Assembly: GCA_036381035.1 (NCBI GenBank)
Contig: DASVDQ010000024.1
Coordinates: 97,742-161,741, forward strand
DNA: 64,000 nucleotides
Direction: 5' to 3'
Source of the DNA: Trueperaceae bacterium
GTDB lineage: Bacteria; Deinococcota; Deinococci; Deinococcales; Trueperaceae
In this document: positions 26,545-58,467 of the stretch, piece by piece
Position numbering within the stretch: the stretch's first letter is position 1
Layout: each line of letters opens with the position of its first letter
Translations under genes and position numbers: made by a program
The notes under the pieces: generated by a model
What the model was told of the DNA's origin: nothing
Database searches by the model: none
Seen by the model: the letters and a program-made list of their open reading frames with translations, nothing else

Positions 26545-26886
26545 GAGCAGCGATACGGCGCGCTTGACCGAGCAGACGTGCAGCGGCTCGTAGCTGGCGT
26601 TGAGGATCAGGACGCGGCCGGAGTTGAGGTTCGACAGGGGCGTGCCGAGGGAGGCGCCCGCGAGGGCCGCACCGCCACCTGGCGAGCCGTCGACGACGTC
26701 GTCCTCGGGCTCGGCGAGCAGGCGTTCCAGGTCTAGGTCAGCGTGGTGGTCGGCCGCGCACCTCCGGTCACGCCGCGCATCATAACCGCGTCGGAGCGGC
26801 GGACGCGTGGCCGAGCGGGCCGAGCGCCCGGGCGGGCGCCGAGGTCGCGCGCGCCTGCTGGGCGCGCGGGCCAGCCGCGCGGGGGC

Positions 26887-28960: not shown

Positions 28961-29105
28961 GGGGCGATCGTACGCGCGCCGAGAGGGCGAGGGACGCGGG
29001 AAAGCTCGCCGACCTAGCCCGTGCGAAGCTTCCGACGGCCGCGCGCCGGCCCGGCGGCATACGCTCCTGGCACGGCCCTCCCGGGCCCGTGATGCGGAGG
29101 TGAAG

Positions 29106-32205: not shown

Positions 32206-32214
32206 CGTCGGCGG

Positions 32215-32976
32215 TCAGACGCTGAGGAAGCGCTCGATGTCGGCCTTGACCTGCGGTCCCGCCGTCTCGCCGGCCACGCGCCCGTCGCGCAGGAACACCA
32301 CGCGGTCCGCGGCCTGCGCCGCGACGGGGTCGTGCGTGACCATGACGACGGTCCAGCCGTGGGAGTCGACCCCGTCGCGCAGCAGGGAGAGCACCTCGGC
32401 GCCGGTCCTGCTGTCGAGGTTGCCCGTCGGCTCGTCGGCGAGGACGACGGCGGGGTCGTTGATCAGCGCCCGCGCCAGGGCCACCCGCTGCCGCTGGCCG
32501 CCCGAGAGCTGGCGCGGACGGTGCTCGAGCCGGTCGGCGATCCCCAGGCGCGCCGCCAGCTCCTCGAGCCTGGCGGCGGCCTCCTCGCTCCTGCCGGCCA
32601 CCTCGGCCGGCAGGAGGACGTTCTCCCTGGCCGTGAGGTTGGGGATCAGCTCGAAGGACTGGAAGAGGAACCCGAGCCTGTCGCGGCGGAGCGCCGTCAG
32701 CTCGTCGTCCGACATGCCGGCGGTGGACCTCCCCTCGATGGCCACGCTGCCCGAGTCGGGCGCGTCGAGCAGGCCGATGAGGTGGAGCAGCGTCGACTTG
32801 CCGCTCCCGCTCGGGCCCATCACGGCGACGAACTGGCCGCGCGGGACGAGCAGCGTCACGCCCTGCAGCGCCGCGATGCGCTCGTCGCCGAGGGCGTAGG
32901 TCTTGTGGAGGTCGGTGGCGGCGAGGGCGAAGCGCCCGGCGGGCTGCGGGCCGGGCGAGGCGGGCGTGTCAGGCAT
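32215..32976 (-). CDS. ABC transporter ATP-binding protein, MacB/LolD-like
   Basis: Motifs: Walker A GPSGSGKST, FQSFELIPNLTARENV, signature LSGGQRQRVALARAL and Walker B VVLADEPTGNLD. Confidence 0.9.
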   Translation of the reverse strand: MPDTPASPGPQPAGRFALAATDLHKTYALGDERIAALQGVTLLVPRGQFVAVMGPSGSGKSTLLHLIGLLDAPDSGSVAIEGRSTAGMSDDELTALRRDRLGFLFQSFELIPNLTARENVLLPAEVAGRSEEAAARLEELAARLGIADRLEHRPRQLSGGQRQRVALARALINDPAVVLADEPTGNLDSRTGAEVLSLLRDGVDSHGWTVVMVTHDPVAAQAADRVVFLRDGRVAGETAGPQVKADIERFLSV

Positions 32977-35536
32977 GTTGGCTCCAGTTCGCCAGCGCCC
33001 TGGCGGGCGCGAGCTGTCCGGCGCGCCGCGCCGGCAGCAGGGAGGCTACCAGCCCCACCAGCGGCGAGGCCAGCAGCGCCAGCAGCGCCAGGGACGCGGG
33101 GAACACGGGCTCGAGTCGGAAGCCCGTCACGGCGCCGGCGCCGGTGGTGACGACGCGGGCCAGCAGCAGCCCGAAGGCCGCGCCGACGGCGCCGCCTATC
33201 GCGGTGATGACGATGCCCTCGGCGACGACGAGCCGCCTGAGCCCGGCCCTCGTGAGGCCGATCGTGCGCAGCACGGCGATCTCGTGGCCGCGGCTGACCA
33301 GGTTCATGCCCAGGGTGTTCGCGACGCCGAGCACGGCCACGATCAGGGCGATCACCAGCAGGACGCGCGTCGTCGCGAACGCCTGGTCGGTGATGCGCAG
33401 GACGTTGCGGCGGTAGTCGACGTTGAGCGTCGCGTCGAGGTAGAGGTCGGGGAACTCCTCGAGCAGGCGCTCGCGCACCGCCGCGGGGTCTTCGCCGGGG
33501 TCGACGGTGAGGATGAAGAGGTCGGGCGTGCCGCCCCCGAAGTCGGGCAGCCGCTCGATGCTCGCCAGCACCGACTCGCCGCCGCCCGTGAAGTCGACGA
33601 TCACGCCGGCGACAGGGAACTCCTCGAACCCGCGGGAGGTGCGCAGGGCGATGGTGTCGCCGACGTCGAAGCCGTGGCGGTCGAGCATCGTGTTCGAGAC
33701 GAGGACGGCGTCGCCGCGCTCCAGGGCCGCGTGCCCGCTCACCGGGTCGCCGTGGCCGGGGATGTACTGCAGGCTGCCGAAGCCCGACTCGGGGTCGAAG
33801 CGCTCGGGGTCGGCCAGGACCACCGCGATCGACCGGCCCCGCGGCTGCTCCTCGCTCCTGAACCGCACGAGGCGTATGCCGACGCCGCTGGCGACGTCGA
33901 CGCCGGGCACGGCCTCGGCCCGGGCGGCGAAGTCCGCCGGGAAGCTCACCGGCGTCGTGACGTAGAGGTCGCCGACGACGGTCGTGTCCATCCACGAGGC
34001 GATGGCGTCGTTGATGCTCGCGACCATCGAGCCCACGCCGATCACGAGGCCGGTCCCCACGACCACGGTGCCGATGGCCACGCCGTTGCGCGGCGCGTTG
34101 CGCTCGGCGAAGCTCACGGCCAGGCGGCCGGGCGCGCCGAAGAGGCGCAGCAGGGCGGGCCTCAGCAGGCGCAGCACCGGCCCGAGCAGGCCCGGGGCGG
34201 CCAGGGAGACGCCGGCGAAGAACAGGGCCAGCGCCACGCACACGGCCACCAGGGCAGCGAACGGGGAGAAGGGCACGAGCGCCAGCCCGGCGCCCACGAG
34301 CATCAGCGCCGCGCCGAGCCAGACGAGGCGCCTGTCCGGCGCCGGCTCCGGGCGCTGCACCGCGGCCATGGGCGCGGTACGCGAGGCGCTCCAGGCCGGC
34401 AGCACGCCGGCCACCAGCGCGGCGAAGACGCCGAGCACGCTGGCCAGGAGCACGCTGCGCACCGGCACCACCAGCGTGCGGAACTCGAAGCCCAGCGTGG
34501 CGGCGTTCAGCGCGGTCACGACGTAGGAGAGCAGCAGGCCCAGCAGCACGCCGGCGACGATGCCGAGCGCCGCGAGCGCCAGGGCCTCGTAGAGCGCCAG
34601 CCGCATCACGGCCCGCCTCGTCAGGGCGATCGTGCGGAGCAGCGCGTGCTCGCGCGTGCGCTCGACGACCGAGGCCATGAACGTGTTGTAGGCGAGGAAG
34701 GCGCCGAGGGCGAGCAGGGTGGCCGCCAGCACCGACAGACCCGACTGCAGCGTCTCGGTGAAGCCGGCCGCGAAGTCGCCGGTGACGGCGGGGAGAGTGA
34801 CGGCGAGGTCGTCGCCCACCAGGGCCTGCAGGCCCTCCCTCACCTCGTCGACCTGCCCGGCCTCGGCCACGAGCACCTCGATCAGGGAGACGCGCCCCCG
34901 CAGGTTCACGAGCTCCTGGACGTCGCTGATGTGCATGACGCCGACGCGTCCGCCGTTCGTGCTGGCGGCGCCGACGCCGTCGTCGAGGAGGCCCGTGACC
35001 GTCAGCTCGGCGCGCCCGGCGGCGAACAGGAAGGGGACCACGTCCCCCACCTCGATGCCGCGCAGCGCGGCGAAGCCGTCGGCGACGGCGATGCCGTTCG
35101 TCCCGGCCCGCGGCAGGCTGCCGGCGGACAGCTCGACTGGCAGGTCCTCGGCGGCCTCGGTGACGCGTCCCTGCACCTGGAAGCCGCTGTCGACGCCGGG
35201 GATCGCCGACCGCTCGAACTCCTCCACGGCGCGCTCCGGCTCGGCGCGCGTGTTCAGCACGGGGTAGGCGGCCGCCACGCCGGGGTAGGAGGCGACCTCG
35301 CCGAGCACCGGCTCGGCGGGGAAGACGAGGCGTCCCGAGGCGCCCGGCGTGACCACGAGGTCGGCCTTGCCGGCCGCGGCCTGCAGGGTGCTGCGGAGGT
35401 TCGCCTCGACGTTGTCGCCCACCGACAGCGTCGTGAGGACGGCGGCGATCCCGAGGCCGATGCCGAGCACCGTGGCCAGGGAGCGCCAGGGGTGCCTGAG
35501 CAGGTTGCGCCAAGCGAGCCTCGACAGCGTGCTCAC
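32969..35536 (-). CDS. ABC transporter permease with two FtsX/MacB-type domains
   Basis: 855 aa. The N-terminus (LAWRNLLRHPWRSLATVLGIGLGIAAV) is followed by a large extracytoplasmic domain and an FtsX 4-TM bundle, and the same arrangement is repeated in the C-terminal half. TACACT lies 6 nt upstream of the GTG. Confidence 0.85.
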   Translation of the reverse strand: MSTLSRLAWRNLLRHPWRSLATVLGIGLGIAAVLTTLSVGDNVEANLRSTLQAAAGKADLVVTPGASGRLVFPAEPVLGEVASYPGVAAAYPVLNTRAEPERAVEEFERSAIPGVDSGFQVQGRVTEAAEDLPVELSAGSLPRAGTNGIAVADGFAALRGIEVGDVVPFLFAAGRAELTVTGLLDDGVGAASTNGGRVGVMHISDVQELVNLRGRVSLIEVLVAEAGQVDEVREGLQALVGDDLAVTLPAVTGDFAAGFTETLQSGLSVLAATLLALGAFLAYNTFMASVVERTREHALLRTIALTRRAVMRLALYEALALAALGIVAGVLLGLLLSYVVTALNAATLGFEFRTLVVPVRSVLLASVLGVFAALVAGVLPAWSASRTAPMAAVQRPEPAPDRRLVWLGAALMLVGAGLALVPFSPFAALVAVCVALALFFAGVSLAAPGLLGPVLRLLRPALLRLFGAPGRLAVSFAERNAPRNGVAIGTVVVGTGLVIGVGSMVASINDAIASWMDTTVVGDLYVTTPVSFPADFAARAEAVPGVDVASGVGIRLVRFRSEEQPRGRSIAVVLADPERFDPESGFGSLQYIPGHGDPVSGHAALERGDAVLVSNTMLDRHGFDVGDTIALRTSRGFEEFPVAGVIVDFTGGGESVLASIERLPDFGGGTPDLFILTVDPGEDPAAVRERLLEEFPDLYLDATLNVDYRRNVLRITDQAFATTRVLLVIALIVAVLGVANTLGMNLVSRGHEIAVLRTIGLTRAGLRRLVVAEGIVITAIGGAVGAAFGLLLARVVTTGAGAVTGFRLEPVFPASLALLALLASPLVGLVASLLPARRAGQLAPARALANWSQHA

Positions 35537-35706
35537 CGCGCCAGTGTACCGGCGCGCTGCACGCCGGGCGTCCCCGCTCTCGCGGAGACCTAACCGTGGC
35601 GTGTTACCTTCGCCTCGCGACGGGGCCGCAGCCAGCGGCCCGACAGGCTGCCGGCGAGGACGGCCCGGCCGGGCCCCGCCGCGCCAGGGAAGGCGAGCTG
35701 CCTGCG

Positions 35707-36945
35707 GTGAACATCCTCTTCGTAGCCGACGACCTCTACCCCGGCTTCGGCGGCCAGGCCAAGGCCACCGAGGGGCACATCGAGGCCCTGCTGGCGCGCG
35801 GCCACGCGGTGAGGGTGATCGCCGGCGCCGAGCCGCGGCCCAGCCGCCCGCCTCCCGGGGTGCTCGTCGAGAGGCTGCCGTCGTGGCGCCTGGGCGCCGC
35901 TCAGACGCGCTTCGCGCACCCGCTGGTGAGCCGCATCGCCCCGCACGTCAGGTGGGCCGACGTCGTCCACGCCAACACCCCGGCCGCCCTCACGGCCGTG
36001 GTGGCGCACCTCGCGCGCCGCCGCGGCGTGCCCGTGGTGATGGGCGTGCACGCGCAGCTCGAGACCTCCACGCTGCAGGCGCCGCTAGTGGGGCCGCTCG
36101 TGGAGAGGTTCCTCACCGGCTGGTACCGCTACCTCTTCGGCCTCGCCGACCTGCTCGTGACGCCCACCCCCTACGCCGCACGGCTCGTCACCCACTTCAC
36201 CGACAGGGAGCCGGTGCCGGTGTCCAACGGCATCGACCTCGGCGCCTGGGAGGGGCTGGCCCCGCGAGCCGCCGGCGACGGGACCCGCCGCCTGGCGTTC
36301 GTCGGCCGGCTGTCGCCCGAGAAGCGCCCCCTCGACCTGCTGCCCCTGATGCACGAGCTGCCCGCGAGCTACCGCCTCACCGTCGCGGGCCACGGTCCCC
36401 TGGAGCCGGAGATGCGCCAGGCCGTGGCGCGGCGGGGCCTCTCCTCCCGCGTCGACCTGCTCGGCTTCGTCGGGGAGCGGGAGAAGCTCGAGCTCCTGTG
36501 CGCGACCGAGGCGTTCCTGATGCCGTCTCCCGCCGAGCTGCAGAGCATAGCCACGCTCGAGGCCATGGCCTCCGGCGCCGCCGTGGTCGCCTGGGGCTAC
36601 GCCAGCAGCGCCGTGCCCTCGCTGGTGCAGGAGGCGGGCGGCGGCGTTGTCGTGCCGCCCGGCGACCCCCGCCGCCAGGCCGCGGCGATCGTCGCGCTCA
36701 TGGAGGACGAGCGCGCGCTGGCCGAGGCGCGGGCGAACGCCAGGGCCTACGCCCGCACGCACGACGTAGCGCTGAGCGCGGCGCGGCTCGAGGAGCTCTA
36801 CGGCGGCCTGGTCGCGGCGGCGCGGCGGCGCGGCGGCCACCGCGCGGCGGCGCGCGCCGCGGACGCCCGCCTCGCGCGGGCCGCCGGCGCCGAGGCCCGC
36901 GGCGCCAGGGGGCGCCTGCCGCAGGGCGAGGGCGCCAGGACGTGA
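35707..36945 (+). CDS. GT4-family glycosyltransferase
   Basis: VNILFVADDLYPGFGGQAKATEGHIEALLARGHAV is a typical GT4 N-terminus. The C-terminal E..G....EA...G motif is present (LMPSPAELQSIATLEAMASGAAVV). Track ORF 35596.. was trimmed to GTG 35707. Confidence 0.8.
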   Translation: MNILFVADDLYPGFGGQAKATEGHIEALLARGHAVRVIAGAEPRPSRPPPGVLVERLPSWRLGAAQTRFAHPLVSRIAPHVRWADVVHANTPAALTAVVAHLARRRGVPVVMGVHAQLETSTLQAPLVGPLVERFLTGWYRYLFGLADLLVTPTPYAARLVTHFTDREPVPVSNGIDLGAWEGLAPRAAGDGTRRLAFVGRLSPEKRPLDLLPLMHELPASYRLTVAGHGPLEPEMRQAVARRGLSSRVDLLGFVGEREKLELLCATEAFLMPSPAELQSIATLEAMASGAAVVAWGYASSAVPSLVQEAGGGVVVPPGDPRRQAAAIVALMEDERALAEARANARAYARTHDVALSAARLEELYGGLVAAARRRGGHRAAARAADARLARAAGAEARGARGRLPQGEGART

Positions 36946-38771
36946 TCGTCGCCGTCACCGGCGCCACCGGCGGGCTCGGCCGGGCGTTGGTGCGGCTCCT
37001 CACGTCCGCCGGGCACAGGGTGAGGGCGGCGGTGCGCACGCCCGCGCAGGCCGAGCTGGCCGCGGCGCTCGGCGCCGAGCCCGTGCAGGTCGACCTCACG
37101 AGGCCGGAGACGCTGCCCGGTCTGGTGGCCGGGGCAGCCGTCGTGCACCACCTCGCCGCCTGGATGGGCCGTCCGCCCGGCCTCGCGCGCGCCGTGAACG
37201 TCGACGGCACCCGCGCCGTGGCGCGGGCCGCCGCGGAGGCGGGCGCCCGCCGGCTCGTGCTGGCCAGCAGCATCGCCGTCTACGGGCCCGTCGCGGGGGG
37301 CGTCGTCACCGAGAGCACGCCCCTGCGCACCGTCGGCGACCCCTACGGCGACTCGAAGGTCGCCGGCGAGGCGGCGGCGAGGGAGGCCCTGGCGGGCAGC
37401 GGCACCGAGCTCGTGGTCCTCAGGCCGACGATGATCTACGGCCCCGCCTCGGGCTCGTGGACGCTGGCGCCCGTCGCCGCGCTGCGGCGGGGCCTGCCGG
37501 TGCTCCTCGGCGACGGCTCCGGCCTCCTCGACGTCGTCTACGTCGACGACGTGGCCGCGGCGTTCGCCGCGGCGGGCGAGGCGCCCGGCGCCGGCGGGCT
37601 GGCGCTGAACGTCGGCGGCGAGAGCGTGACGGCCAGGGAGTTCTTCGGGGCCTACGCGCGCATGCTCGGGGTGCCCCTGCGCGGCGTGCCGGCCTGGCTG
37701 GCGCGCGCCGGCGCGGCCGCAGCCGGCCGCGTCACGGCGCTGCTCCCCGGCGTCGACGCGTTCGCGCCGGAGACCATCGGCACGCTGCTGAGCCGCGCCA
37801 CGTTCGACCACGGCGCCGCCGCGCGCGTCCTCGGCTACCGCCCGCGGGTGGGGCTGCACGAGGGGATGAGCCGCACCGCCGCCTGGCTGCGCGAGGCGGG
37901 TCTGGCGCCGGGGCCGCGCTCGGCGCTCGTGGTGGGCGCCTCCTCCGGCCTGGGCCGCGCGGTCGCCGACGAGCTGGCCCGCCGCTACGTGCGCGTCTAC
38001 GCCGCCGACATGGCGCCGGCCTCGCCGGTGGCCCGCGACGCGGGTCCCGCCCCAGTGGACCACCTCGCCGTCGACGCCACCTCGCAGGAGGACCTCGCCC
38101 GCGCCGTCGGCGAGGTGGAGGCGCGCGAGGGCCACCTCGACCTGCTCGTGACGACGGTCGGGTCGCTGAGGCCCGGCTCGCTGGAGTCGCAGCCGTGGGA
38201 GGACGTCACGGCGCAGCTCGAGCTCAACGCGCTCGCGCCCGTCCTGGCGGCGCGGGCGGCCGCGCCCGGCATGAGGGCGCGCGGGCGGGGGCGCATCGTG
38301 AACGTCAGCTCGACGAACGCGCTCCTCGCCACGCCGTTCATGGGTGCGTACTCGGCGGGGAAGGCCGCGCTGGAGAGCTTCACCGACGCTCTGCGCCTGG
38401 AGCTGAGGCCGTTCGGCGTCGACGTCGTGCTGGTACAGCCCGGCGCGATGCGCACGGGCTTCGCCGAGCGGGCCAAGGAGCTGCTCGACGCCGAGGCGGG
38501 CCGGTCCGGGGAGCCGTGGGCGGCCTACCTCAGGCGGCTGAAGGACTCGGGGCTGTGGGGCGAGGCCCGCGCCGCGGACCCCGCCGAGGTGGCGCGCGTC
38601 GTCGCCCGCGTGGCCCTGTCCAGGCGCCCGCCCGCCCGCGTGGCCGGCACCAGGGAGGTGCCGCTGCTGCGCGCGTTCGCCGCGCTGCCCGACGCCCTCA
38701 AGGACGAGGTGTTCGTGAGACCGCTGGGTCTGCGCCGTCCCCGCGCACGGCGCGCCGGGCGGGGCGCCTGA
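36942..38771 (+). CDS. Fusion protein: NAD-dependent epimerase/3beta-HSD-type reductase (N) + classical short-chain dehydrogenase (C)
   Basis: GTGA overlap with GT4. The N-domain shows VIVAVTGATGGLGRAL...YGDSK. The C-domain, from about 37918, shows ALVVGASSGLGRAV...NVSSTNA...YSAGKAALE (TGxxxGxG, NxSS, YxxxK). Confidence 0.8.
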   Translation: MIVAVTGATGGLGRALVRLLTSAGHRVRAAVRTPAQAELAAALGAEPVQVDLTRPETLPGLVAGAAVVHHLAAWMGRPPGLARAVNVDGTRAVARAAAEAGARRLVLASSIAVYGPVAGGVVTESTPLRTVGDPYGDSKVAGEAAAREALAGSGTELVVLRPTMIYGPASGSWTLAPVAALRRGLPVLLGDGSGLLDVVYVDDVAAAFAAAGEAPGAGGLALNVGGESVTAREFFGAYARMLGVPLRGVPAWLARAGAAAAGRVTALLPGVDAFAPETIGTLLSRATFDHGAAARVLGYRPRVGLHEGMSRTAAWLREAGLAPGPRSALVVGASSGLGRAVADELARRYVRVYAADMAPASPVARDAGPAPVDHLAVDATSQEDLARAVGEVEAREGHLDLLVTTVGSLRPGSLESQPWEDVTAQLELNALAPVLAARAAAPGMRARGRGRIVNVSSTNALLATPFMGAYSAGKAALESFTDALRLELRPFGVDVVLVQPGAMRTGFAERAKELLDAEAGRSGEPWAAYLRRLKDSGLWGEARAADPAEVARVVARVALSRRPPARVAGTREVPLLRAFAALPDALKDEVFVRPLGLRRPRARRAGRGA

Positions 38772-39756
38772 GCCACCGCGGCGGCCGGCGGGAGAGCAGC
38801 AGCCAGGCGCACAGCGGCCCGAGCAGGTAGGCGACGTAGAACGTGCCGGCGCGCCACAGCGCGACGGGCGCGGCGATCGAGGCCGCGTCGGCGCTCGAGT
38901 CGACGACGAGGCCGACCATCAGCTCGGTGAAGCCGGAGGCGCCAGGCGTGGGGACGAAGAAGCCGACGAGCGAGATGATCGAGAGCACGGAGAGGACGTC
39001 GAGGAGCCGCGCCTGCGCCCCGTAGGTCGCCAGCAGGGCCCACAGCAGGATGAAGTTCGCCAGCCAGCCGACGATGTTCACGCCGTGCAGGTAGGCGAAC
39101 CTCGTCAGGGGCAGGTCCCTGAACGCGACGGCGCTCACGTAGTACTCGCGCCCCATGCGCGCGAGCCGGTCGCGGAAGCGGCGCAGCGGACGCCACCTCG
39201 TCGCGCGCCGCATGACGCCGTAGAGCGCGCCGGGGAAGCGCGCCAGGACGATGGCGCCGACGAGCGCTAGGGCCGCGGCGGCGATCGCGAGCGCGGTGAC
39301 GAAGGGCGGCAGGGCCAGGGGGCTCACCGCCACGATGTACACGAGGCCCACGGGGATCAGCACGCCGAGGGCCGCCAGGTCGAGCACGAAGAGCTGCACG
39401 GCGACGCCGACGCTGGTGCCGAGGGGCACCCCGGAGCGCTCGAGGGCCAGGACCAGACCGGGCGCCCCGCCGGTGCCCGACGGGGTCATCGCCGAGCCGA
39501 ACACCTGACCCACGTGGGCCGTGAAGGCCTCCCAGGGCCCGAGCCTGTGCCCCTGCGCCCCGACGAGCGCCTGGATCTTGGCCACGGGCGCGATCCACAG
39601 CAGGACCAGGCTCAACACGCTGACGACGGCGAGGTCCGTGCGCAGCTCGGCGGCGGCGTAGGTGGCCGGCGAGAAGATCGACTCGCGGGTCGCCAGGTAG
39701 AGCCCGCCGCAGCCCAGGAGCAGCGAGAGCGCGAACAGGCCGACGAGCCGCTTCAC
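38698..39756 (-). CDS. LPG_synthase_TM / UPF0104 flippase-like integral membrane protein
   Basis: 352 aa and polytopic. The motifs MTPSGTGGAPGLVLAL and FVPTPGASGFTE resemble the MprF flippase-domain family. GTGA overlap with the upstream GT gene. The 3' end overlaps the convergent gene by 74 nt. Confidence 0.7.
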   Translation of the reverse strand: MKRLVGLFALSLLLGCGGLYLATRESIFSPATYAAAELRTDLAVVSVLSLVLLWIAPVAKIQALVGAQGHRLGPWEAFTAHVGQVFGSAMTPSGTGGAPGLVLALERSGVPLGTSVGVAVQLFVLDLAALGVLIPVGLVYIVAVSPLALPPFVTALAIAAAALALVGAIVLARFPGALYGVMRRATRWRPLRRFRDRLARMGREYYVSAVAFRDLPLTRFAYLHGVNIVGWLANFILLWALLATYGAQARLLDVLSVLSIISLVGFFVPTPGASGFTELMVGLVVDSSADAASIAAPVALWRAGTFYVAYLLGPLCAWLLLSRRPPRWLRRPARRAVRGDGADPAVSRTPRP

Positions 39757-40979
39757 GACGCCGCCCTCGCGCCCGCGGCGGCGAGGCTCGCCGCGTCGAC
39801 GCCGGCGAAGGCCCCGGGCGCCAGCAGCGCGGGGTCGACCTCGCCGGAGAGCGCCAGCCGCGCCAGGAACCGACCCACCCCCTGTGACATGCCGCCGAAG
39901 TCTAGCGCGGCGGCGGACGCTCGCGCCGCGGCGAGGCGCGCCGGGTCGTCCCGCCAGGCGGCGACGACCGCCGGCAGCGCGGCGAACGAGCCGGCGTGCT
40001 CGCCCAGGCCCCGCGAGGCCAGGAACCTGACGACGGCCCGCTCGTTGAGGCCGGCGTAGCTCGCGGTCACCACGGGCCTGCCCACCGCCAGCGCCTCCAT
40101 CGTCGAGGCGGGGCCGGCCTTGCCCACCATCAGGTCGCAGGCCGCGAGGGGCACCTCCATGCGCTCGACGAACCCCAGGACCCTCACGCGCTCCGTCAGG
40201 CCCGCCGCGTCGGCCGCCGACCGCAGGCGCGCGGCCAAGGCCCCGTTGCGGCCCGTGGCGCAGAGGACGGCGGCGCCGCCCCGCGCCATGGCCAGGACCG
40301 CCTCCGCCACCTCGTCGCCGGCCACGCCCTCCGCGCCCAGGCTCACGAGCACCACGAAGCCGTCACCCAGGCCCAGCTCGCGCCGCGCCGCCTCGCGGTC
40401 GGGGGGCTCGTGGAAGCGGCGCGCGACGGGGTAGCCGGCGACGTGCACCGCGGCCGGGGGCACCCCGAGCCTGACGAGGTCCCCCTTGGCCGCCGCCGAG
40501 GGCGCGAGCACCGTCTCCGCGCCCGGTGCCGACCAGAGCGCGCTGGCGTCGAAGGGCTCGGTGGCGAACACGACCACGCGGCTCCGCAGGCCGTGCCTCA
40601 GCCTCGCCTCGGTGAAGGCGGTGGCGAGCCAGCCGTGGTTCACGACCACGAGCGCCGGCGGCGCCGCGTCGAGGGCCGCCGTGACCCGCCGCGTGAAGCC
40701 GCGCAGCACGGCGCCCTGCACGGCGCGGCTGACGGCCGGGGCGGCGTCCAGCGCCGCCTGCGCCGCCCGCACCAGCCGGGGACGGGCCAGCATGGCGCGC
40801 CAGCCCGCCTTGTGGCGCGCGTCGAGGCGCGGGGCGTGCTCGGCCATGACGTCGACGACGCGGGGCGCGAGGGCGCCGCCCGCCGCCGCGGCCACGGCCT
40901 CGGCCATCGCCCTGGCCGTGGCCACGTGCCCGCCGCCGGCGGCGATCGTCGCCAGCAGGACCTCGCGCGGACCGCCCAT
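39753..40979 (-). CDS. MGDG-synthase/GT28-type lipid glycosyltransferase
   Basis: Trimmed to ATG 40979. The N-terminus (VLLATIAAGGGHVATARAMAEAV) is an MGDG_synth-like GGGH box. The C-terminal GT-B half shows MVGKAGPASTMEALAVGRPVV. Confidence 0.75.
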   Translation of the reverse strand: MGGPREVLLATIAAGGGHVATARAMAEAVAAAAGGALAPRVVDVMAEHAPRLDARHKAGWRAMLARPRLVRAAQAALDAAPAVSRAVQGAVLRGFTRRVTAALDAAPPALVVVNHGWLATAFTEARLRHGLRSRVVVFATEPFDASALWSAPGAETVLAPSAAAKGDLVRLGVPPAAVHVAGYPVARRFHEPPDREAARRELGLGDGFVVLVSLGAEGVAGDEVAEAVLAMARGGAAVLCATGRNGALAARLRSAADAAGLTERVRVLGFVERMEVPLAACDLMVGKAGPASTMEALAVGRPVVTASYAGLNERAVVRFLASRGLGEHAGSFAALPAVVAAWRDDPARLAAARASAAALDFGGMSQGVGRFLARLALSGEVDPALLAPGAFAGVDAASLAAAGARAAS

Positions 40980-41971
40980 CAGTCCTTCCCGGCGTGCAGA
41001 GCCTCCACGGCCAGCCGGAGGCCCTCCCGCCAGCTGACCCGCGGGCGGTAGCCGAGCTCCCTGACCGCGTGCTCGATCGAGAAGTGGACGTCGTGGGCCA
41101 TCAGCCCGGCGCGGTACCTGGTCATCGGCGGCTCGGTGGCCGGGAACAGGGCTCGCCACGTGGCCTCGACGCCCGTCGCGATCGCCCTGACGGGCCGGCG
41201 CGGCACGTTGAGGCGCGGCGGCGCGCTGCCGACGAGACGGGCCAGCTCCTCGAACAGCTCGCGCCAGCTCGGCGCTCCCTCGTCGGCGATCAGGTAGACG
41301 CGCCCGGCGGCGGACGAGGCGGACACGGCGAGGGCCACGCCGTCGGCGAAGTTCGTGGCGTAGGTCGTGTTCAGCACGCTCTCGCCGCGCTTCATCAGCG
41401 GCATGACCCCGCGGGCCACGGCGCGCTCGACGCGCTGGAACGTCGCGTCGCGGGCGCCGAACGGCCACAGGCCGGGCCTGACGATCACGCCCTCGATGCC
41501 GGCCTTCGTCATGACCACGTTCTCGGCCAGGATCTTCGAGTAGGCGTAGGGGTTCGAGACGTTGTCGCGCGGCAGGGTGCGGGGGTCGGCGTCCCTGAAG
41601 CCCCGGTAGGTGTGCACGGCCACGCTGGAGACGAGGACGAAGCGGCGCGCGCCCGCCCTGACGGCGGCGTCGATCAGGCGCTGGGTGCCGAGGACGTTGG
41701 TGCGGTAGAAGGCGTCCCACGGGCCCCAGTCCGACACGCGCGCGGCGGCGTGCACGACGGCGTCGACGCCCTCGAGCGCCCAGGCGAGGTCGCCCGGCTT
41801 CGACAGGTCGGCGCGCACGACCTCGACGTCTCCGCTCTCGAGCGCGCCGCGCAGGTTGTGCAGCTCGCCCCAGGGCGAGACGAGGGCGCGCACGGCGTCG
41901 CCGCCGCCCACGAGGCGCTCGGTGATGTGGCTGCCGAGGAAGCCGTGGGCGCCGGTGACGAGGACCCTCAC
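40979..41971 (-). CDS. NAD-dependent epimerase/dehydratase-family reductase
   Basis: GTG 41971 (GTGA overlap). Motifs: VRVLVTGAHGFLGSHI and NPYAYSKILAE (YxxxK). Confidence 0.8.
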   Translation of the reverse strand: MRVLVTGAHGFLGSHITERLVGGGDAVRALVSPWGELHNLRGALESGDVEVVRADLSKPGDLAWALEGVDAVVHAAARVSDWGPWDAFYRTNVLGTQRLIDAAVRAGARRFVLVSSVAVHTYRGFRDADPRTLPRDNVSNPYAYSKILAENVVMTKAGIEGVIVRPGLWPFGARDATFQRVERAVARGVMPLMKRGESVLNTTYATNFADGVALAVSASSAAGRVYLIADEGAPSWRELFEELARLVGSAPPRLNVPRRPVRAIATGVEATWRALFPATEPPMTRYRAGLMAHDVHFSIEHAVRELGYRPRVSWREGLRLAVEALHAGKD

Positions 41972-42702
41972 GGGAGCAGTGCGCCGGCCCGCGCCAGCGC
42001 GGCCACGTCGAGGGTCAGGCCGATGACGAGGTGCGTGACGGCGGGGTAGAGGACGGAGCGCGTGCGCACCGCCATGACCCCGAACACCAGGCTGGCGGGC
42101 AGCGCCGCCAGCACCTCGGGGAGCGGCTTGCCCACGTGCACGAGCGTGGCCGCGAAAGCCTGCAGCCACACCGCCGTCGCGGCGCCGAAGGGCCTCTCCA
42201 GGGCCCCGAGCAGGAAGCCGCGGTAGAACGCCTCGAAGGCCACGTAGTAGAGCGCGTAGAGCGCGGCCCAGCCCAGCAGCGCCGGCACCGAGCGACCCAC
42301 CGCCTCGCCCGCCCACGGGTAAGCCGCGGTCAGCGCGGGGGCGCCGCCCGCCCCCACCGCCACGACGGGCACGGCGACGAGGGAGCTCACCAGGGCGAGC
42401 CTCCAGCCGGCGCGGGCGTCCCCGCGCGAGAGGCGCATCTCGCGCAGGGTCCCCCCGCTGGCCGTGAAGAGCAGCGCGGGCACGGCCAGCAGCGTGACGA
42501 GGCTCCAGGCGATGCCCACGGCCGCGGTGGCCGGCGTGCGCGGCGCGAAGCCGAGGAGCGCCGGTCCCGGCGTGGCCAGGTACCAGAACGCCACCTGGAG
42601 CAGCGTGCCGGAGCCCAGCAGGAACCATACGCGGGCTCCCTCGTCGTCGAACAGGGCCGCGAGGTCGCCCAGGAGCGCCCTCAGCGCCGCGCCCAGGCTC
42701 AT
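41968..42702 (-). CDS. CPBP-family intramembrane glutamic endopeptidase homolog
   Basis: ATG 42702 (ATGA overlap). The protein has multiple TM segments. The motif VAFEAFYRGFLLG is an E..x.RG box, and a later LVHVGKP motif supplies the His. Confidence 0.7.
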   Translation of the reverse strand: MSLGAALRALLGDLAALFDDEGARVWFLLGSGTLLQVAFWYLATPGPALLGFAPRTPATAAVGIAWSLVTLLAVPALLFTASGGTLREMRLSRGDARAGWRLALVSSLVAVPVVAVGAGGAPALTAAYPWAGEAVGRSVPALLGWAALYALYYVAFEAFYRGFLLGALERPFGAATAVWLQAFAATLVHVGKPLPEVLAALPASLVFGVMAVRTRSVLYPAVTHLVIGLTLDVAALARAGALLP

Positions 42703-43814
42703 AGACCCTTCTGGTAGATCCTGTAGGTCTTGCTGTGGACCCCGCCGGCGGCCTCGATGGCCCTGTTGATGCGGGTGTTGTCCTCCAGCGTCCAGCCGCA
42801 CTCTCCCTCCACGATGCCGCGCACCTTCGCGCGCTTGACGACCTCGTGGATCAGGAGGAGGTCGAAGCCCTTGTGCCGGTGCTCGGGCAGGACGCCGAGC
42901 ATGACGAGCCGGGCCCTGTCGATGATGCTCTTGCGCCGCAGCAGGTGGAAGATGCCGAAGGGCAACAGCCGCCCGTCGAACCGCGCCAGCACCTGGTTCA
43001 GGTCGGGCACGACCACGGCCAGGGCGACGGGCTCGCCCTTGTGCTCGAGGAACAGGACGAGCTCCGGGTCGATGATCAGCTTGAGGTCGTTCGCGAGGTA
43101 CTCGACCTCGGCGTCCGAGAGCGGCACGTTGCCCCAGTTGTGCTCCCACGCCGCCGTGTGTATGCGCTTGAGGATGTCGACCTCGCGGTCGAACCGCCTC
43201 ATGTCGGCCGGGCGGACCCTGACGTCGTAGCGTGACGCCGTGCGCTCGGCCAGCCGGGCCACCCGCTCGGAGAAGGGGCGGCGGTTGTCGAAGTGGAACG
43301 CGTAGAGGTCCTTGACCTTCGCGTAGCCGAGCCGCTCCACCCAGCGCGGGTACTCCTTGGGGTTCTGCGGCATGAGCACGTAGGGCCGCTCGTCGAAGGC
43401 GTCGACCTGGAAGCCGGCGCCGTCGTTCATGGACCCGTTGATCGGCCCGCGGACGGCGGAGAGGCCCTCCGCGGACGCGTGGGCCTCGACGACCTCCAGG
43501 AGCGCGGACGCGACCTGCTCGTCCTCGGCCTCGAAGAACCCGAAGAACGCGATGCGCTCGTCGTGGACGCGCATGTGCTCGTCGTCCTCGACGTACGCCA
43601 CGCGCCCCACGACCCTGCCGTCCTTCTTGGCCAGGTAGAGCGTCCGCCTGGCGTGGCGCCACAGCGGGTTCTTGCGCTCGTCGAGGAGGTCGAGCTGCGA
43701 GATGCGCAGCGGCGGGACCCACACCGGGTCGCCCCTGTACTTGCGGTACGGGTAGTCGACGAACGACCTCACGCCCTCGCGGCCCTCGACCGCCTCGACA
43801 GTCAGCTGCCCCAC
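42699..43814 (-). CDS. Large (371 aa) GNAT-like N-acyltransferase of unknown specificity
   Basis: The C-terminal region (VLPEHRHKGFDLLLIHEVVKRAKVRG) resembles GNAT motif A. The N-terminal half is also GNAT-sized. The gene starts 8 nt downstream of the SPT-like gene. Confidence 0.65.
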   Translation of the reverse strand: MGQLTVEAVEGREGVRSFVDYPYRKYRGDPVWVPPLRISQLDLLDERKNPLWRHARRTLYLAKKDGRVVGRVAYVEDDEHMRVHDERIAFFGFFEAEDEQVASALLEVVEAHASAEGLSAVRGPINGSMNDGAGFQVDAFDERPYVLMPQNPKEYPRWVERLGYAKVKDLYAFHFDNRRPFSERVARLAERTASRYDVRVRPADMRRFDREVDILKRIHTAAWEHNWGNVPLSDAEVEYLANDLKLIIDPELVLFLEHKGEPVALAVVVPDLNQVLARFDGRLLPFGIFHLLRRKSIIDRARLVMLGVLPEHRHKGFDLLLIHEVVKRAKVRGIVEGECGWTLEDNTRINRAIEAAGGVHSKTYRIYQKGL

Positions 43815-43822
43815 GGCTGGGT

Positions 43823-45058
43823 TCAGATGACGCCGAGGCGCCGGCCCACGACGGAGAAGGCCGAGAGCAGCCTGTCGAGCTGCTCGCTAGTGTGGTTCGC
43901 GTTCACGCTGGTGCGGATTATCGCCTGCCCGTTCGGCACGCCGGGAGGGAGGGCGGGGGTCGTGAACACACCTTCCTCCCACAGGCCCTTCCAGAACGCC
44001 ATGGCCAGCTCGTCGGGGCCCACCAGCACCGGCACGATGGGCGTCTGGGACCCGAGGGTGTCGAACCCCAGGGCGTCCATGCCCTCGCGCAGCTGGCGCA
44101 CGTTGTCCCATAGCTGCGCGCGCAGCTCCGGCTCCGACTCCATGATCCGCAGCGCCTCCAGGGCCGCCGCCATCTGCATGGCGGGCAGCGCGGCCGTGAA
44201 GATGAACGGCCGCGCGGCGTGCTTGACGAAGTTCACGACAGCGCGGTCGCCGGCCATGAAGCCGCCCACGCTGGCGAACGACTTCGAGAACGTGCCGATG
44301 ATCACGTCGATCTCGTCTGTCAGCCCGAAGTGGTCGCCGGTGCCGCGTCCGTCTGGGCCGAGCACGCCGGTGGCGTGGGCGTCGTCGACGATCAGCCTGG
44401 CGCCGAAGCGGCGCTTGATCTCGACGAGCTCCGGCAGCTTCGCGATGTGGCCGCTCATCGAGAACACGCCGTCGGTGACGATGATGCGGCCGCCCGGCTT
44501 GCCCACGTCCTGCTCGAGCAGGCGCACCAGGCCGTCCAGGTCGTTGTGCTCGAACTTGCGCAGTGACGCGAACGACAGCTTGGCGGCGTCGTAGAGCGAG
44601 GCGTGGTTCTCGCGGTCGTAGTAGAGGATGTCGTGCCGCCCCGCCAGCGCCGAGATCACCGAGAGGCAGCCTAGGTAGCCGGCGCTGAAGGTCAGCGCCG
44701 CCTCCTTGCCCAGGAACTCGGCGAGCCGGCGCTCGAGCTCCTCGTGCAGCGTCAGGGTCCCCGTGAGGAACCGCGAGCCGGTGCACGAGGTGCCGAAGTC
44801 GTTGAGCGCGGCCCTCGCCGCCTCCTTGAGGCGCGGGTCCTGCGTCAGCCCGAGGTAGTCGTTCGAGCCGGTGATGACCATCTCCTTGCCGTTCACCGTC
44901 ACGGTGCCGCCGTGCTGCGAGGCGATCGGCTTGAAGTAGGGGTGCATGCCGGCGGCCGCCGCCTCGTCGGCCCGGCGGAAGGCGTAGGCCTTGGCGAACG
45001 CGTCGTCGGCCCTCTGGCTCATCGCGCTCTGCGCTTCGGGGGGCGCTACCTCGGACAA
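43823..45058 (-). CDS. Serine palmitoyltransferase-like alpha-oxoamine synthase (PLP-dependent)
   Basis: TTG start 5 nt after GGAGG. Motifs: SNDYLGL, GSRFLTGT, DDAHATG and the PLP-lysine box GTFSKSFASVGGF. In my recollection these match bacterial SPT rather than BioF or Kbl. Confidence 0.8.
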   Translation of the reverse strand: MSEVAPPEAQSAMSQRADDAFAKAYAFRRADEAAAAGMHPYFKPIASQHGGTVTVNGKEMVITGSNDYLGLTQDPRLKEAARAALNDFGTSCTGSRFLTGTLTLHEELERRLAEFLGKEAALTFSAGYLGCLSVISALAGRHDILYYDRENHASLYDAAKLSFASLRKFEHNDLDGLVRLLEQDVGKPGGRIIVTDGVFSMSGHIAKLPELVEIKRRFGARLIVDDAHATGVLGPDGRGTGDHFGLTDEIDVIIGTFSKSFASVGGFMAGDRAVVNFVKHAARPFIFTAALPAMQMAAALEALRIMESEPELRAQLWDNVRQLREGMDALGFDTLGSQTPIVPVLVGPDELAMAFWKGLWEEGVFTTPALPPGVPNGQAIIRTSVNANHTSEQLDRLLSAFSVVGRRLGVI

Positions 45059-45185
45059 GGTTTCCTCCAGTGGGGAAGGCGCCGCGCGCCGCGGTCCGCA
45101 GGGACGGCGTCCGTGCCGCAGGCGTTAGCCGGCGCCAGCATGAGTAACCCTACGGCACCGCGGCGCCTCTGAGCAAGGAGTTCTC

Positions 45186-45308
45186 ATGGTCTTTGCGCCT
45201 TCCGCCACTCGGGCGCTCATGGGCCGCTGGTATCATCCGGGCACGACCACGACGCGGGCCTCAGCGGGCCCGGCAACCCTCTCCGACACCGCGCGGGAGA
45301 TGACCTGA
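45186..45308 (+). CDS. Candidate small protein (40 aa)
   Basis: The ATG lies 5 nt after a perfect AAGGAG. The open frame MVFAPSATRALMGRWYHPGTTTTRASAGPATLSDTAREMT ends 1 nt before the GTG of the next gene. It is too short for the ORF track and has no homology evidence. Confidence 0.3.
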   Translation: MVFAPSATRALMGRWYHPGTTTTRASAGPATLSDTAREMT

Positions 45309-45309
45309 C

Positions 45310-45858
45310 GTGTTGCTCGCTTCGCCGCCCGACGACGCCCAGACCGCAGCAGTAACCACCAGGGAGGCACGGCCGGAGGACGCCCCACTCGTCCACAGGA
45401 TCTACCTCTCGACCCCGGGCTACTTCGACATCATCTCGATCCCCATCCCCACCCTCGCCGAGGTCTCCACCGACCTGGAGACGGCGGCGGAGGACCAGCG
45501 GCGCCACGCCGAGCTCGTGCTGGTGGAGCGCGAGGCGGCCGGCGAGGTGGACCCCGCGATCGTCGACCCCGTGACGGACAGGCTGGTCGTGGGCTACCTC
45601 GACTACAAGCTCGACTACCCCGAGCCGGGCGACGCCACCGTGAACCTGCTGCTCGTGCTGCCCTCGGTGCAGAGCCGCGGCATCGGCGGCGCGTGCGCGC
45701 GCGACCTCGAGCGGCGTCTCGCCGGGCGCTCGCGGCGCATGCTCGCCAGCATCTTCGGCGACAACCCGCGCGCCCGCAGGTTCTGGGAGCGGCTGGGCTT
45801 CAGCTTCGCGATCGACGCCAAGCCGCACCTCGACTGGTACGCGAAGAACCTGGCCTGA
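45310..45858 (+). CDS. GNAT-family N-acetyltransferase
   Basis: 182 aa with GNAT motif A (LLLVLPSVQSRGIGGACARDLE) and the C-terminal NPRARRFWERLGF. Confidence 0.8.
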   Translation: MLLASPPDDAQTAAVTTREARPEDAPLVHRIYLSTPGYFDIISIPIPTLAEVSTDLETAAEDQRRHAELVLVEREAAGEVDPAIVDPVTDRLVVGYLDYKLDYPEPGDATVNLLLVLPSVQSRGIGGACARDLERRLAGRSRRMLASIFGDNPRARRFWERLGFSFAIDAKPHLDWYAKNLA

Positions 45859-45904: not shown

Positions 45905-46813
45905 GTGCCGGGAAGACCCGACAAGACCGTCGTGAGCGTCTCCTTGGGCTCGCCGCGTCGCGACGCCGACGTCGAGGTCGAGCTGCTCGGGCACCGGGTC
46001 AGGATGGTGCGCCGCGGCGTGGGCAGCGACGTCGCGGCGGCGCGCTCCCTGGTGGCCGAGCTCGACGGGCAGGTCGACGCCATCGGCATCGGCGGCGCCG
46101 ACATCTACCTCCGCGTCGGCGGGCGGCGCTACCGCATCAGGGACGCCGCCTTCGTCGCGTCGGCCGCCCGGCGCACGCCCGTGGTGTGCGGCGCCGGGCT
46201 CAAGGACAGCCTGGAGCGCAGCGCCGTGGACGCCCTCGAACCGGTCGTGGGTTGGCGGGGGAGGCGCGTGCTGATGGTCAGCTCGGTGGACAGGTTCGGC
46301 ATGGCCGAGGCCCTCGTCCGCCACGGCGCCGACGTGACCTTCGGCGACCTGGTCTTCGGCCTGGGGCTGGACGTGCCCCTGCGGTCGCTGGCCGCGGTGG
46401 AGCGCCTGGCGAGCGTCGCGCTGCCCGTGATCACGCGGCTGCCCTTCAGGTGGTTCTACCCGACGGGCGACGCCCAGGACGCCGCGCCCAAGCCGCGGCA
46501 CCAGCGCCACTACCGCTGGGCCGAGGTGCTGGCGGGCGACTGGCACTACATCAGGGCCAACGCGGGGCCGGACCTCACGGGCAAGGACGTGCTCACGAAC
46601 ACGACGACAGCCGAGGACGTCGCCTTCCTGCGCTCCGCCGGCGCGCGCCGGCTCGCGACGACGACGCCGCGGGTCGGCGGGCGCAGCGTCGGGACGAACC
46701 TGCTCGAGGCCGCGTTCGTGGCCGTGGAGGGCGCGCCCGGCGAGCTGACGCGCGGCCGCTACGACGAGCTCGTGGCGGCGGCGGGCCTCGGCCCGACCGT
46801 GCTCGAGCTCTGA
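45905..46813 (+). CDS. Conserved hypothetical protein
   Basis: 302-aa ORF with good coding bias. TAACCT lies 8 nt upstream of the GTG. I vaguely recall homologs labelled quinate 5-dehydrogenase in databases, but I cannot support a function. Confidence 0.6.
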   Translation: MPGRPDKTVVSVSLGSPRRDADVEVELLGHRVRMVRRGVGSDVAAARSLVAELDGQVDAIGIGGADIYLRVGGRRYRIRDAAFVASAARRTPVVCGAGLKDSLERSAVDALEPVVGWRGRRVLMVSSVDRFGMAEALVRHGADVTFGDLVFGLGLDVPLRSLAAVERLASVALPVITRLPFRWFYPTGDAQDAAPKPRHQRHYRWAEVLAGDWHYIRANAGPDLTGKDVLTNTTTAEDVAFLRSAGARRLATTTPRVGGRSVGTNLLEAAFVAVEGAPGELTRGRYDELVAAAGLGPTVLEL

Positions 46814-53944: not shown

Positions 53945-54948
<1,004 letters not shown>

Positions 54949-54952
<4 letters not shown>

Positions 54953-57351: not shown

Positions 57352-57358
57352 GGCGCCC

Positions 57359-58360: not shown

Positions 58361-58467
58361 TGTTCAGGCTCCTGCGGTCTCCGCGGCGGCCATCGGCCGA
58401 TCCGGGCCGAGATAGCTGGGGACGTCGCCCGTCCGCGGTCGCTCGAAGATAGGCACCTTCGTCGCGG

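Follow-up and report, generated by a model that had tools for sequence, protein, structure and literature searches.

Ceramides are made in bacteria by a serine palmitoyltransferase (SPT, or Spt), an acyl-CoA N-acyltransferase (bCerS) and an epimerase-type reductase (CerR), which are encoded by CC_1162, CC_1154 and CC_1164 in Caulobacter crescentus and by spt, yghO and epi in Escherichia coli BL21(DE3) (PMC9386255). The Spt/bCerS/CerR pathway has been published before, with potential producers inferred for as many as 40 phyla (PMC11334938); in sphingomonads, glycosphingolipids replace lipopolysaccharide (LPS) in the outer membrane (PMC11087976). Here, we describe a locus of eight tightly packed genes, A to H (Table 1), on a 64,000-nucleotide stretch of a Trueperaceae genome of the phylum Deinococcota (assembly GCA_036381035.1, contig DASVDQ010000024.1, positions 97,742 to 161,741 of the forward strand), which we refer to as the window. 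Deinococcota have an outer membrane without LPS, and the genes for their envelope lipids are largely unassigned. We consider it likely that the locus specifies a bacterial pathway of the ceramide type to which glycosylation and export functions have been added. Its product would probably be a glycosphingolipid-like envelope lipid in a bacterium with an LPS-free outer membrane. The evidence supports the essentials of the original prediction, which read the locus in this way from its letters and open reading frames (ORFs).

By homology, the core of the locus is a new phylum-level member of the known pathway, and its accessory set is distinct. This set comprises a non-orthologous reductase together with a CPBP-like membrane protein, a GT28 glycosyltransferase, a flippase-like protein, and Lol/MacB- and MmpL-type transporters. 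As in the Spt/bCerS/CerR systems, the genes are clustered, with an NAD-dependent extended short-chain dehydrogenase/reductase (SDR) and transporters in the locus; protein A shares 40% identity with Spt of E. coli BL21, and B aligns over its full length with E. coli YghO (31% identity, E 1e-62, residues 4-371 versus 8-380). Unlike those systems, the Trueperaceae SDR belongs to a divergent subfamily and is accompanied by the CPBP-like protein, the putative exporters are of the LolCE/MacB and MmpL types rather than LptF/G/C paralogs, no dedicated acyl carrier protein (ACP) or acyl-ACP synthetase (AcpR/AasR) gene was found near the cluster in the window annotation, and the host is an LPS-less member of the Deinococcota. 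The closest solved structure to A is the SPT of Sphingobacterium multivorum, of the Bacteroidota-Myxococcota type (PDB 3A2B, 8GUH; 347 bits), which is likewise a soluble enzyme; there is no partner ACP gene near A. The identity between the two is moderate, and the score of A does not reach the NCBIfam equivalog cutoff. In Bacteroidota, the downstream genes lie scattered (PMC11334938), but in the Trueperaceae locus they are translationally coupled. The likeness to sphingomonads is one of concept: a diderm free of LPS, with a glycosylated ceramide as a possible envelope lipid. The Trueperaceae case is predicted from genes, and its glycosyltransferases belong to GT28 (monogalactosyldiacylglycerol [MGDG] synthase-like) and GT4.

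The original prediction took such a pathway to be undescribed in this phylum. Literature linking Deinococcota, Truepera, or Rubrobacter with SPT, sphingolipids, or ceramide consisted only of microbiome-correlation papers, the phylum lists of the key surveys being outside this search. In the accessible part of the supplements to PMC11334938, there is no mention of Deinococcota, Truepera, or Rubrobacter, and the main text gives its 40 phyla unlisted. The novelty of the core is nevertheless smaller than implied, given the breadth already inferred there. Because the core chemistry is known and its broad distribution has already been inferred bioinformatically, we regard the interest of the locus as moderate: the chemistry is expected, and the locus touches on the construction and supply of the outer membrane in diderms without LPS. 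It provides a concrete gene set for a putative ceramide-based glycolipid in an LPS-free lineage that includes a cultured, sequenced type strain, a correction to public annotation, in which the condensing enzyme is named Kbl or BioF, and proteins that may flip and export sphingolipids in bacteria without Lpt machinery. To our knowledge, the understanding of bacterial sphingolipid export is at an early stage and so far limited to Proteobacteria.

In the pathway that we propose, A, which is dependent on pyridoxal 5'-phosphate (PLP), would catalyze the condensation of an amino acid, most likely L-serine, and a long-chain acyl thioester, from which a 3-keto long-chain base results; B would N-acylate this base from acyl-CoA. 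An NAD(P)H-dependent extended SDR, most likely D, would then reduce the 3-keto group to yield dihydroceramide. E would add a hexose at the C1 hydroxyl, probably galactofuranose in Truepera radiovictrix, and G may attach a second sugar. F would move the lipid across the cytoplasmic membrane, and a LolCE/MacB-type ABC system, possibly with an MmpL3-like RND transporter, would extract it for the LPS-free outer membrane. For comparison, a scan for B homologs, with one genome per species, yielded at least 80 loci (numbered with the prefix L); all counts below are among these listed loci.

Condensing enzyme and N-acyltransferase

The curated NCBIfam SPT models (NF047600, NF047599, NF047603) are lineage-specific, being named for CFB, Beta-, and Alphaproteobacteria. 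A scored 435 against a cutoff of 640 for SPT-CFB, 396 against 500 for SPT-BetaP, 313 against 670 for the third SPT model, and 384 against 426 for bioF (TIGR00858). Because all of these scores are below cutoff, the family placement of A needed further tests. Against PDB sequences, the Sphingobacterium SPT was the best match, followed by the Thermus alpha-oxoamine synthase (AOS; 292 bits), cysteate acyltransferase (282 bits), Sphingomonas SPT (276 bits), Kbl (254 bits), and BioF (~205 bits). We built a neighbor-joining tree of 59 AOS sequences (100 bootstraps), including Spt, BioF, and Kbl of E. coli BL21(DE3) and three PDB sequences. In this tree, A falls within a clade of Trueperaceae and Rubrobacteria AOSs (100% support) that is nested, together with the Sphingobacterium SPT, among AOSs encoded beside B homologs. 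This SPT assemblage stands apart from Kbl, BioF, and the Thermus AOS (86%) and from cysteate acyltransferase (61%).

The active site gives the same picture. Taking the active-site residues of the Sphingobacterium SPT from its structures (PMC10196870), we found 18 of 20 positions to be identical in an alignment with A, and the remaining two are conservative changes. The PLP residues K259, H152, D225, and H228 of A align with K244, H138, D210, and H213, and its serine-binding network (N66, G94, S95, H152, S258) is identical to Asn52, Gly80, Ser81, His138, and Ser243 of the Sphingobacterium enzyme; in the alignment, these serine-network positions differ in Kbl, the Thermus AOS, and cysteate acyltransferase. 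G94-S95, S258, and A289 of A are of the SPT type (Gly80-Ser81, Ser243, and Ala274 in Sphingobacterium), and these positions are changed in cysteate acyltransferase, the Thermus AOS, Kbl, and BioF. M271 of the Sphingobacterium SPT, which contributes only a main-chain carbonyl, is Ile in A, as in most members of the SPT clade. Both motifs that had first pointed to an SPT, GSRFLTGT and GTFSKSFASVGGF, are present in A. Altogether, tree placement and active-site signature bear out the reading of A as an SPT rather than a BioF or Kbl, and by homology A falls in the SPT clade.

Public names say otherwise: the T. radiovictrix ortholog (L083:8551-9876, ADI14675) is "Glycine C-acetyltransferase" in UniProt or elsewhere bears generic names, and relatives are called "8-amino-7-oxononanoate synthase" by JGI. 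These names and the 384-bit bioF score are what one would expect if A were an ordinary BioF or Kbl with a gene neighborhood of no functional meaning. We judge this to be very improbable, as the score does not reach the bioF cutoff, the tree sets A away from both families, and the active-site signature is that of an SPT. In addition, there are no tdh or bio genes near A, and the pairing of an AOS with a bCerS homolog recurs in ~15 phyla. The Kbl and BioF names are probably a systematic misannotation across Trueperaceae.

It is also improbable, if somewhat less so, that the enzyme uses glycine, alanine, or another amino acid to make a non-canonical N-acyl amino-lipid (a 1-deoxy-ceramide analog, or a sulfonolipid if the substrate were cysteate). 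The scores below the curated SPT cutoffs favor a non-serine substrate, the Trueperaceae and Rubrobacteria AOSs form a distinct clade with full support, and bacterial SPTs take Ala and Gly at low efficiency (PMC10196870). Against this, A keeps every residue that contacts the serine carboxylate/hydroxyl network, and where cysteate acyltransferase differs from SPT (A81, G185, A243, K274), A matches SPT at all four positions. The conserved residues argue for serine as the predicted substrate of A or, more cautiously, for a small amino acid.

For the N-acyltransferase, E. coli BL21(DE3) provides the nearest references: yghO (ECD_02850) is the counterpart of Caulobacter CC_1154, the acyl-CoA N-acyltransferase needed for dihydroceramide synthesis, ECD_02852 corresponds to the epimerase-type reductase, and ECD_02854 to spt (PMC9386255). 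The bCerS and CerR references in our analysis are these E. coli homologs, standing in for the Caulobacter proteins. NCBIfam has no model for B or YghO, and Pfam gives weak GNAT matches in two places in B, whose family comprises >3,300 detected homologs. An AlphaFold2 model of B, built with 53 sequences, has a pLDDT of 91.9 and a pTM of 0.89. Foldseek searches with this model returned tandem-repeat GNATs at the top (E 3e-14, TM 0.63-0.68), with matches to MAB_4324, glucosamine N-acetyltransferase, and MshD, and with N-myristoyltransferase lower down. The CoA motif, R313-H-K-G-F-D, lies in the second GNAT repeat. A profile of the B family found no significant match among PDB sequences (best E 0.24), and because there is no bCerS structure to compare, the structure of B was compared at the fold level only. 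The proposed relationship of the GNAT-like protein to bCerS holds up well, in that YghO homology extends over the full length and the predicted fold is that of a tandem GNAT. Because of the end-to-end alignment, the GNAT model, and the CoA motif, we place B in the bCerS/YghO family by sequence and modeled fold. The T. radiovictrix ortholog shares 54% identity with B.

Reductase, glycosyltransferase, and flippase candidates

D had been likened to CerR. The enzyme class, an extended SDR, is correct, but the orthology is not: on scores and tree placement, D is not a CerR ortholog but a member of a divergent sister subfamily. D shares 26% identity (68 bits) with the E. coli CerR homolog, while CerR-type SDRs beside B in other phyla score 86-138 bits. 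We rooted an SDR tree on GalE and added RfaD as a further unrelated extended SDR. In this tree, the D-type clade (D of the window, L001, L004, L008, L010, and T. radiovictrix) has 100% support, is sister to the N-terminal half of H (H-N; 81%), and lies outside the main CerR-type group. Because the E. coli CerR homolog itself also falls outside this main group of CerR-type neighbors, the gap in scores is the main evidence on CerR orthology. H-N scores 68.6 bits against the E. coli CerR homolog and 125 bits against HpnA. The best NCBIfam matches of D are OleD (165 bits) and HpnA (148 bits), both below cutoff; OleD is a reductase of long-chain 3-oxo lipids. Indeed, HpnA and OleD are the nearest curated families for D, H-N, and the CerR-type SDRs alike, with D leaning to OleD. 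Cofactor and YxxxK motifs are intact in D (G7AHGFLG, matching G7xxGxxG, and Y142AYSK), in H-N (G7ATGGLG and Y135GDSK), and in the C-terminal half of H (H-C). Because it is translationally coupled in the operon, we favor D as the likeliest ketone reductase among the three. The H fusion is a candidate for an alternative keto-reductase and/or for sugar-nucleotide modification. We also considered H-C as a Bacteroides-type KdsR (3-ketosphinganine reductase) and rejected this, as its score of 141 bits against a cutoff of 400 is below those of several generic SDR models.

The reductase appears to have changed together with the membrane protein C. In two Trueperaceae loci (L012, L015), B is immediately followed by a CerR-type SDR, and C is missing. 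A D-type SDR occurs only in loci with C, and C occurs only in Trueperaceae loci with a D-type SDR. It thus seems that, in one subclade of Trueperaceae, CerR gave way to a module made up of C and D. C has at least four hydrophobic segments and a Pfam domain above cutoff. The window protein and six full-length homologs read F-E-x-F-Y-R at motif 1 and H-x-x-x-G at motif 3. Compared with the CPBP motifs EExxxR, FxxxH, and HxxxN, the first Glu is replaced by Phe and the Asn by Gly, while the second Glu, the Arg, and both His are kept. Judging by these replacements, protease activity of C is doubtful.

The enzyme classes of the remaining proteins point to lipid glycosylation and flipping. E aligns with Arabidopsis MGD1 over nearly its full length (73.8 bits in PDB) and matches UgtP-type enzymes, namely the processive diacylglycerol (DAG) beta-glucosyltransferase (45.9 bits) and the NCBIfam model for diglucosyl-DAG synthase (64.5 bits). 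It differs from MGD1 and UgtP in falling far below the equivalog cutoffs and in its proposed acceptor, which would be ceramide and not DAG. The position of E behind the SDR is conserved between Trueperaceae and Rubrobacteria. G resembles PimA (43 bits against the PDB sequence) and other lipid-directed GT4 enzymes. F scores 79 bits for PF03706 (cutoff 33.4) and 60.2 for TIGR00374 (cutoff 43.2), with ~8 hydrophobic segments. Like the flippase domain of MprF, it matches LPG_synthase_TM from end to end; unlike MprF, it stands alone, without the aminoacyl-phosphatidylglycerol synthase domain. In the minimal locus L090, F directly follows the bCerS-like gene. In T. radiovictrix, a UDP-galactopyranose mutase gene (Glf; 379 bits, cutoff 304) lies between E and F, and because this is a genuine mutase beside E, the sugar there is probably galactofuranose. 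From family resemblance and gene linkage we infer two glycosylations and a flipping step, as had been predicted. The same evidence supports a glycosylated product of the locus, with ceramide as the presumed acceptor.

An unlikely alternative is that only A and B make a ceramide-type lipid, which would be left plain or be decorated otherwise, and that E, F, G, and H form a separate glycoglycerolipid pathway sharing the operon. The nearest characterized relatives of E are indeed MGDG synthase and the processive DAG glucosyltransferase, G resembles DAG/phosphatidylglycerol (PG) glycosyltransferases as well as PimA, F and G have weak matches to the NCBIfam models for a GlcN-PG flippase and synthase, and in L090 the A-B pair is linked to F and MacB without any glycosyltransferase. 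The start/stop overlaps at D/E and E/F argue against such a separate pathway, as does the A-B-SDR-E-F order, which is kept in Trueperaceae and Rubrobacteria at 40-57% identity; in addition, ceramide carries at C1 a hydroxyl that is the chemical analog of the one at sn-3 of DAG.

Distribution of the locus and export candidates

The 80 listed loci span ~15 phyla: besides Trueperaceae, they come from Rubrobacteria and other Actinomycetota, Acidobacteriota, Myxococcota (including cultured Myxococcus and Pyxidicoccus), Gemmatimonadota, Ignavibacteria, Planctomycetota, Bdellovibrionia, Elusimicrobiota, Bacteroidota, and others. An AOS gene lies immediately upstream of the B homolog on the same strand in 50 of the 80 and elsewhere in the locus in six more; AOS and an extended SDR are both present in 44. 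"Spt-like" enzymes have been defined by co-location with bCerS and CerR (PMC11334938), and A is co-located with bCerS in this sense. In 16 of the 80 loci there is no AOS, although flanks of 3 kb or more were available on either side. These AOS-less loci (L026, L028-L030, L037-L039, and others) include many from Ignavibacteria. Either the pathway genes are dispersed there, as the sphingolipid genes of Bacteroidota are, or the B family has a second function. The Myxococcota SPT-like proteins (L056, L065, and others) are 511-543 aa long and carry a conserved C-terminal extension of ~110 aa (e.g., LTWRAANLQPEDL), which is not present in the SPT-like proteins of other lineages.

Within Trueperaceae, the synteny holds throughout the family, including its type species. 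The cluster of T. radiovictrix DSM 17093 has the accessions ADI14675 and ADI14677-ADI14679, and ADI14681 is a near-identical alternative call of the flippase-like gene. Assignment of the pathway to Deinococcota is right as to the phylum but too broad, in that close named orthologs belong only to Trueperaceae or to unclassified Deinococcota; the nearest named homologs of A and B come from Trueperaceae MAGs. No Deinococcus or Thermus is among the named relatives of A (72-100% identity), the genomes of these genera not having been searched directly. Deinococcus and Thermus have N-glyceroyl-alkylamine phosphoglycolipids. We rejected a link between the locus and these lipids, as the AOS/bCerS product would be an N-acylated 2-amino-1,3-diol and not an N-glyceroyl alkylamine, and neither genus appears among the close homologs.

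Outside the family, the locus has relatives in Rubrobacteria. Trueperaceae and Rubrobacteria are radiation- and desiccation-tolerant lineages of different phyla. Their AOSs share 69-72% identity (Rubrobacteraceae/Actinomycetota L009, L011, L013), and the convergent G-H pair is found both in L089 (84%) and in the Rubrobacteraceae locus L013 (46%). The single AOS clade, the shared A-B-SDR-E-F order, and the G-H pair in L013 suggest that the locus moved laterally between the two lineages.

Next to the cluster, Trueperaceae carry genes for a permease, an ATPase, and an RND protein, whose best curated matches are LolC/E, MacB/LolD, and MmpL3. In this they resemble the lipid and lipoprotein extractors of the LolCDE/MacB type VII ABC transporters and MmpL3; they differ in that all scores are below cutoff and that the permease is a fused duplicate, and the lipid link is drawn from adjacency. 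MacB/ABC genes adjoin the cluster in five Trueperaceae loci. Orthologs of the permease (51-87% identity) do so in L015, L083 (T. radiovictrix), L089, and L090, and those of the ATPase in L015, L089, and L090; MMPL follows the MacB-ABC genes in the Trueperaceae locus L015 as it does in the window. The Rubrobacteria loci have no MacB/ABC/MMPL transporters. A small GNAT gene is divergent upstream of the AOS in L001, L002, L004, L015, L089, and L090; the L090 cluster consists of this gene followed only by AOS, bCerS-like, flippase-like, MacB, and ABC genes. In Caulobacter, LptF/G/C paralogs of the sphingolipid locus export the lipids, and in E. coli BL21 lptF and lptG lie beside spt. Because these sphingolipid loci carry their own exporter genes, and because of the adjacency, the Trueperaceae transporters are, by analogy, export candidates in an LPS-free lineage.

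A bolder idea is possible but doubtful: the outer leaflet of the LPS-free outer membrane of Trueperaceae would consist of glycosphingolipids (galactofuranosyl-ceramide in T. radiovictrix), exported independently of Lpt by the MprF-like flippase, a LolCDE/MacB-type extractor, and the MmpL3-like RND protein, with the locus having been exchanged with monoderm Rubrobacteria. Such a route, if true, would give sphingolipid export a second solution, with no relation to the recently described LptF2/G2/C2 system of Caulobacter.

Several observations weigh against a glycosylated, exported ceramide as the product of the locus. A lies below every curated NCBIfam SPT cutoff, including that of its best match, SPT-CFB, its BioF score is close to cutoff, and the inner SPT nodes of the tree are weak at 54-61%, with 54-56% for the node shared with the Sphingobacterium SPT. 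D is not a CerR ortholog and H contains a second, equally CerR-like domain, while C has no assigned role in the proposed pathway. The relatives of E and G with known function use DAG or phosphatidylinositol rather than ceramide, and the L090 cluster has neither an SDR nor a glycosyltransferase. The adjacency of the MacB/ABC/MMPL genes is confined to one bacterial family and could thus reflect common descent of the gene order instead of a functional link; the genes might also form the ordinary lipoprotein (Lol-like) system of the cell. Finally, the polar lipids of T. radiovictrix have been described only as uncharacterized glycolipids and phospholipids (PMC3072082).

A separate observation concerns two "acyl compounds" of T. 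radiovictrix, whose identification as iso-C18:0 and iso-C15:0 1,2-diols was based solely on equivalent chain length (PMC3072082). It is speculative that these "1,2-diol" peaks derive from long-chain bases.

Gene layout and neighboring features

The window has a GC content of ~75%, and because spurious long ORFs are common at such a GC content, we called genes from GC periodicity at the three codon positions (GC3 phase). The GC3 profile resolves two plus-strand genes (~35600-36900 and ~36900-38700) and, beyond this G-H pair, six minus-strand genes with changes of reading frame at ~39750, 40980, 41970, 42700, and 43815. Direct translation at the predicted coordinates gives uninterrupted proteins for A to H, so that the eight genes, their frames, and their start/stop overlaps are all reproduced. 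A and B are separated by an 8-nt gap, B/C share an ATGA overlap, C/D, E/F, and G/H each share a GTGA overlap, and D/E overlap by 1 nt (TGATG). The 74-nt overlap between the convergent ends of F and H is also present. Because the layout, including this 74-nt overlap, is identical in the 88%-identical relative L089, and the order A-B-C-D-E-(glf)-F is found in T. radiovictrix (L083), we do not regard it as a product of chance. Pfam and NCBIfam agree with the domain labels given earlier to all eight genes (Table 1).

Two details of the prediction need qualification. The TTG start proposed for A has GGAGG 5 nt upstream, but the NCBI call for the identical protein begins at Met13 (399 aa); in close relatives, JGI annotates the longer form. 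The bounds of 35707-45058 enclose the eight genes, but the functional locus is larger, at ~29965-45858, when co-occurring Trueperaceae neighbors are included.

Table 1. Features of the locus and its immediate neighbors, with positions in the window
Feature	Position	Strand	Basis and remarks
A: SPT-like alpha-oxoamine synthase	43823-45058	-	TTG start, alternative Met13 at 45022; PLP lysine K259; Pfam Aminotran_1_2 213 bits
B: bCerS/YghO-family tandem-GNAT N-acyltransferase, candidate ceramide synthase, 371 aa	42699-43814	-	YghO homology, AlphaFold2 model
C: CPBP/Rce1-like polytopic membrane protein	41968-42702	-	Pfam Rce1-like 42 bits
D: extended SDR (OleD/HpnA-like), candidate 3-keto reductase	40979-41971	-	Pfam Epimerase/3Beta_HSD
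E: GT28-type lipid glycosyltransferase (MGDG synthase/UgtP-like)	39753-40979	-	Pfam Glyco_tran_28_C
F: MprF-type flippase-like membrane protein	38698-39756	-	LPG_synthase_TM PF03706, TIGR00374
G: GT4 glycosyltransferase, PimA-like, candidate second glycosylation	35707-36945	+	Pfam Glyco_transf_4 and Glycos_transf_1
H: fusion of extended SDR (1-~320, HpnA-like) and classical SDR (~326-609)	36942-38771	+	Pfam Epimerase 127 bits, adh_short 158 bits
Duplicated MacB_PCD/FtsX permease (LolC/E-like), fused, 855 aa	32969-35536	-	Pfam; NCBIfam lolCE 103 bits
ABC ATPase, MacB/LolD type, permease partner	32215-33045	-	Pfam ABC_tran; NCBIfam MacB 231, LolD 208 bits
MMPL-family RND transporter (MmpL3-like)	29965-32214	-	Pfam MMPL 240 bits; NCBIfam MmpL3 265 bits
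Small single-domain GNAT (FR47-like), divergent from A	45310-45858	+	Pfam Acetyltransf_1/FR47

An Rfam search across the whole window found one tRNA only, with no riboswitch or leader near the operon, and the rest of the window holds housekeeping genes. Beyond the small GNAT gene, a 302-aa ORF (45905-46813, plus strand) has a strong coding GC3 signal and no Pfam or NCBIfam match; it is conserved beside the small GNAT in L001, L002, and L089 (56-83% identity). On the other side, the MMPL gene adjoins a gene for a LEA_2 (late embryogenesis abundant) domain protein (28569-30002, plus strand), a family linked with desiccation tolerance. A stand-alone HNH endonuclease gene (26113-26886, minus strand) lies between a gene of unknown function and one for a D-Ala-D-Ala ligase. 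Lipid-related genes unlinked to the cluster encode a patatin-like phospholipase (7575-8708, minus strand), a FakA-type fatty acid kinase subunit (14989-16707, plus strand), and an enoyl-CoA hydratase (28184-29509, minus strand). Finally, the region 54000-60000, which carries an oligopeptide-type ABC transporter operon (SBP_bac_5, two BPD_transp_1 permeases, and an oligo_HPY-domain ATPase), has a GC content of 0.67-0.68, compared with ~0.75 elsewhere; acquisition by transfer or a different compositional constraint may explain this.

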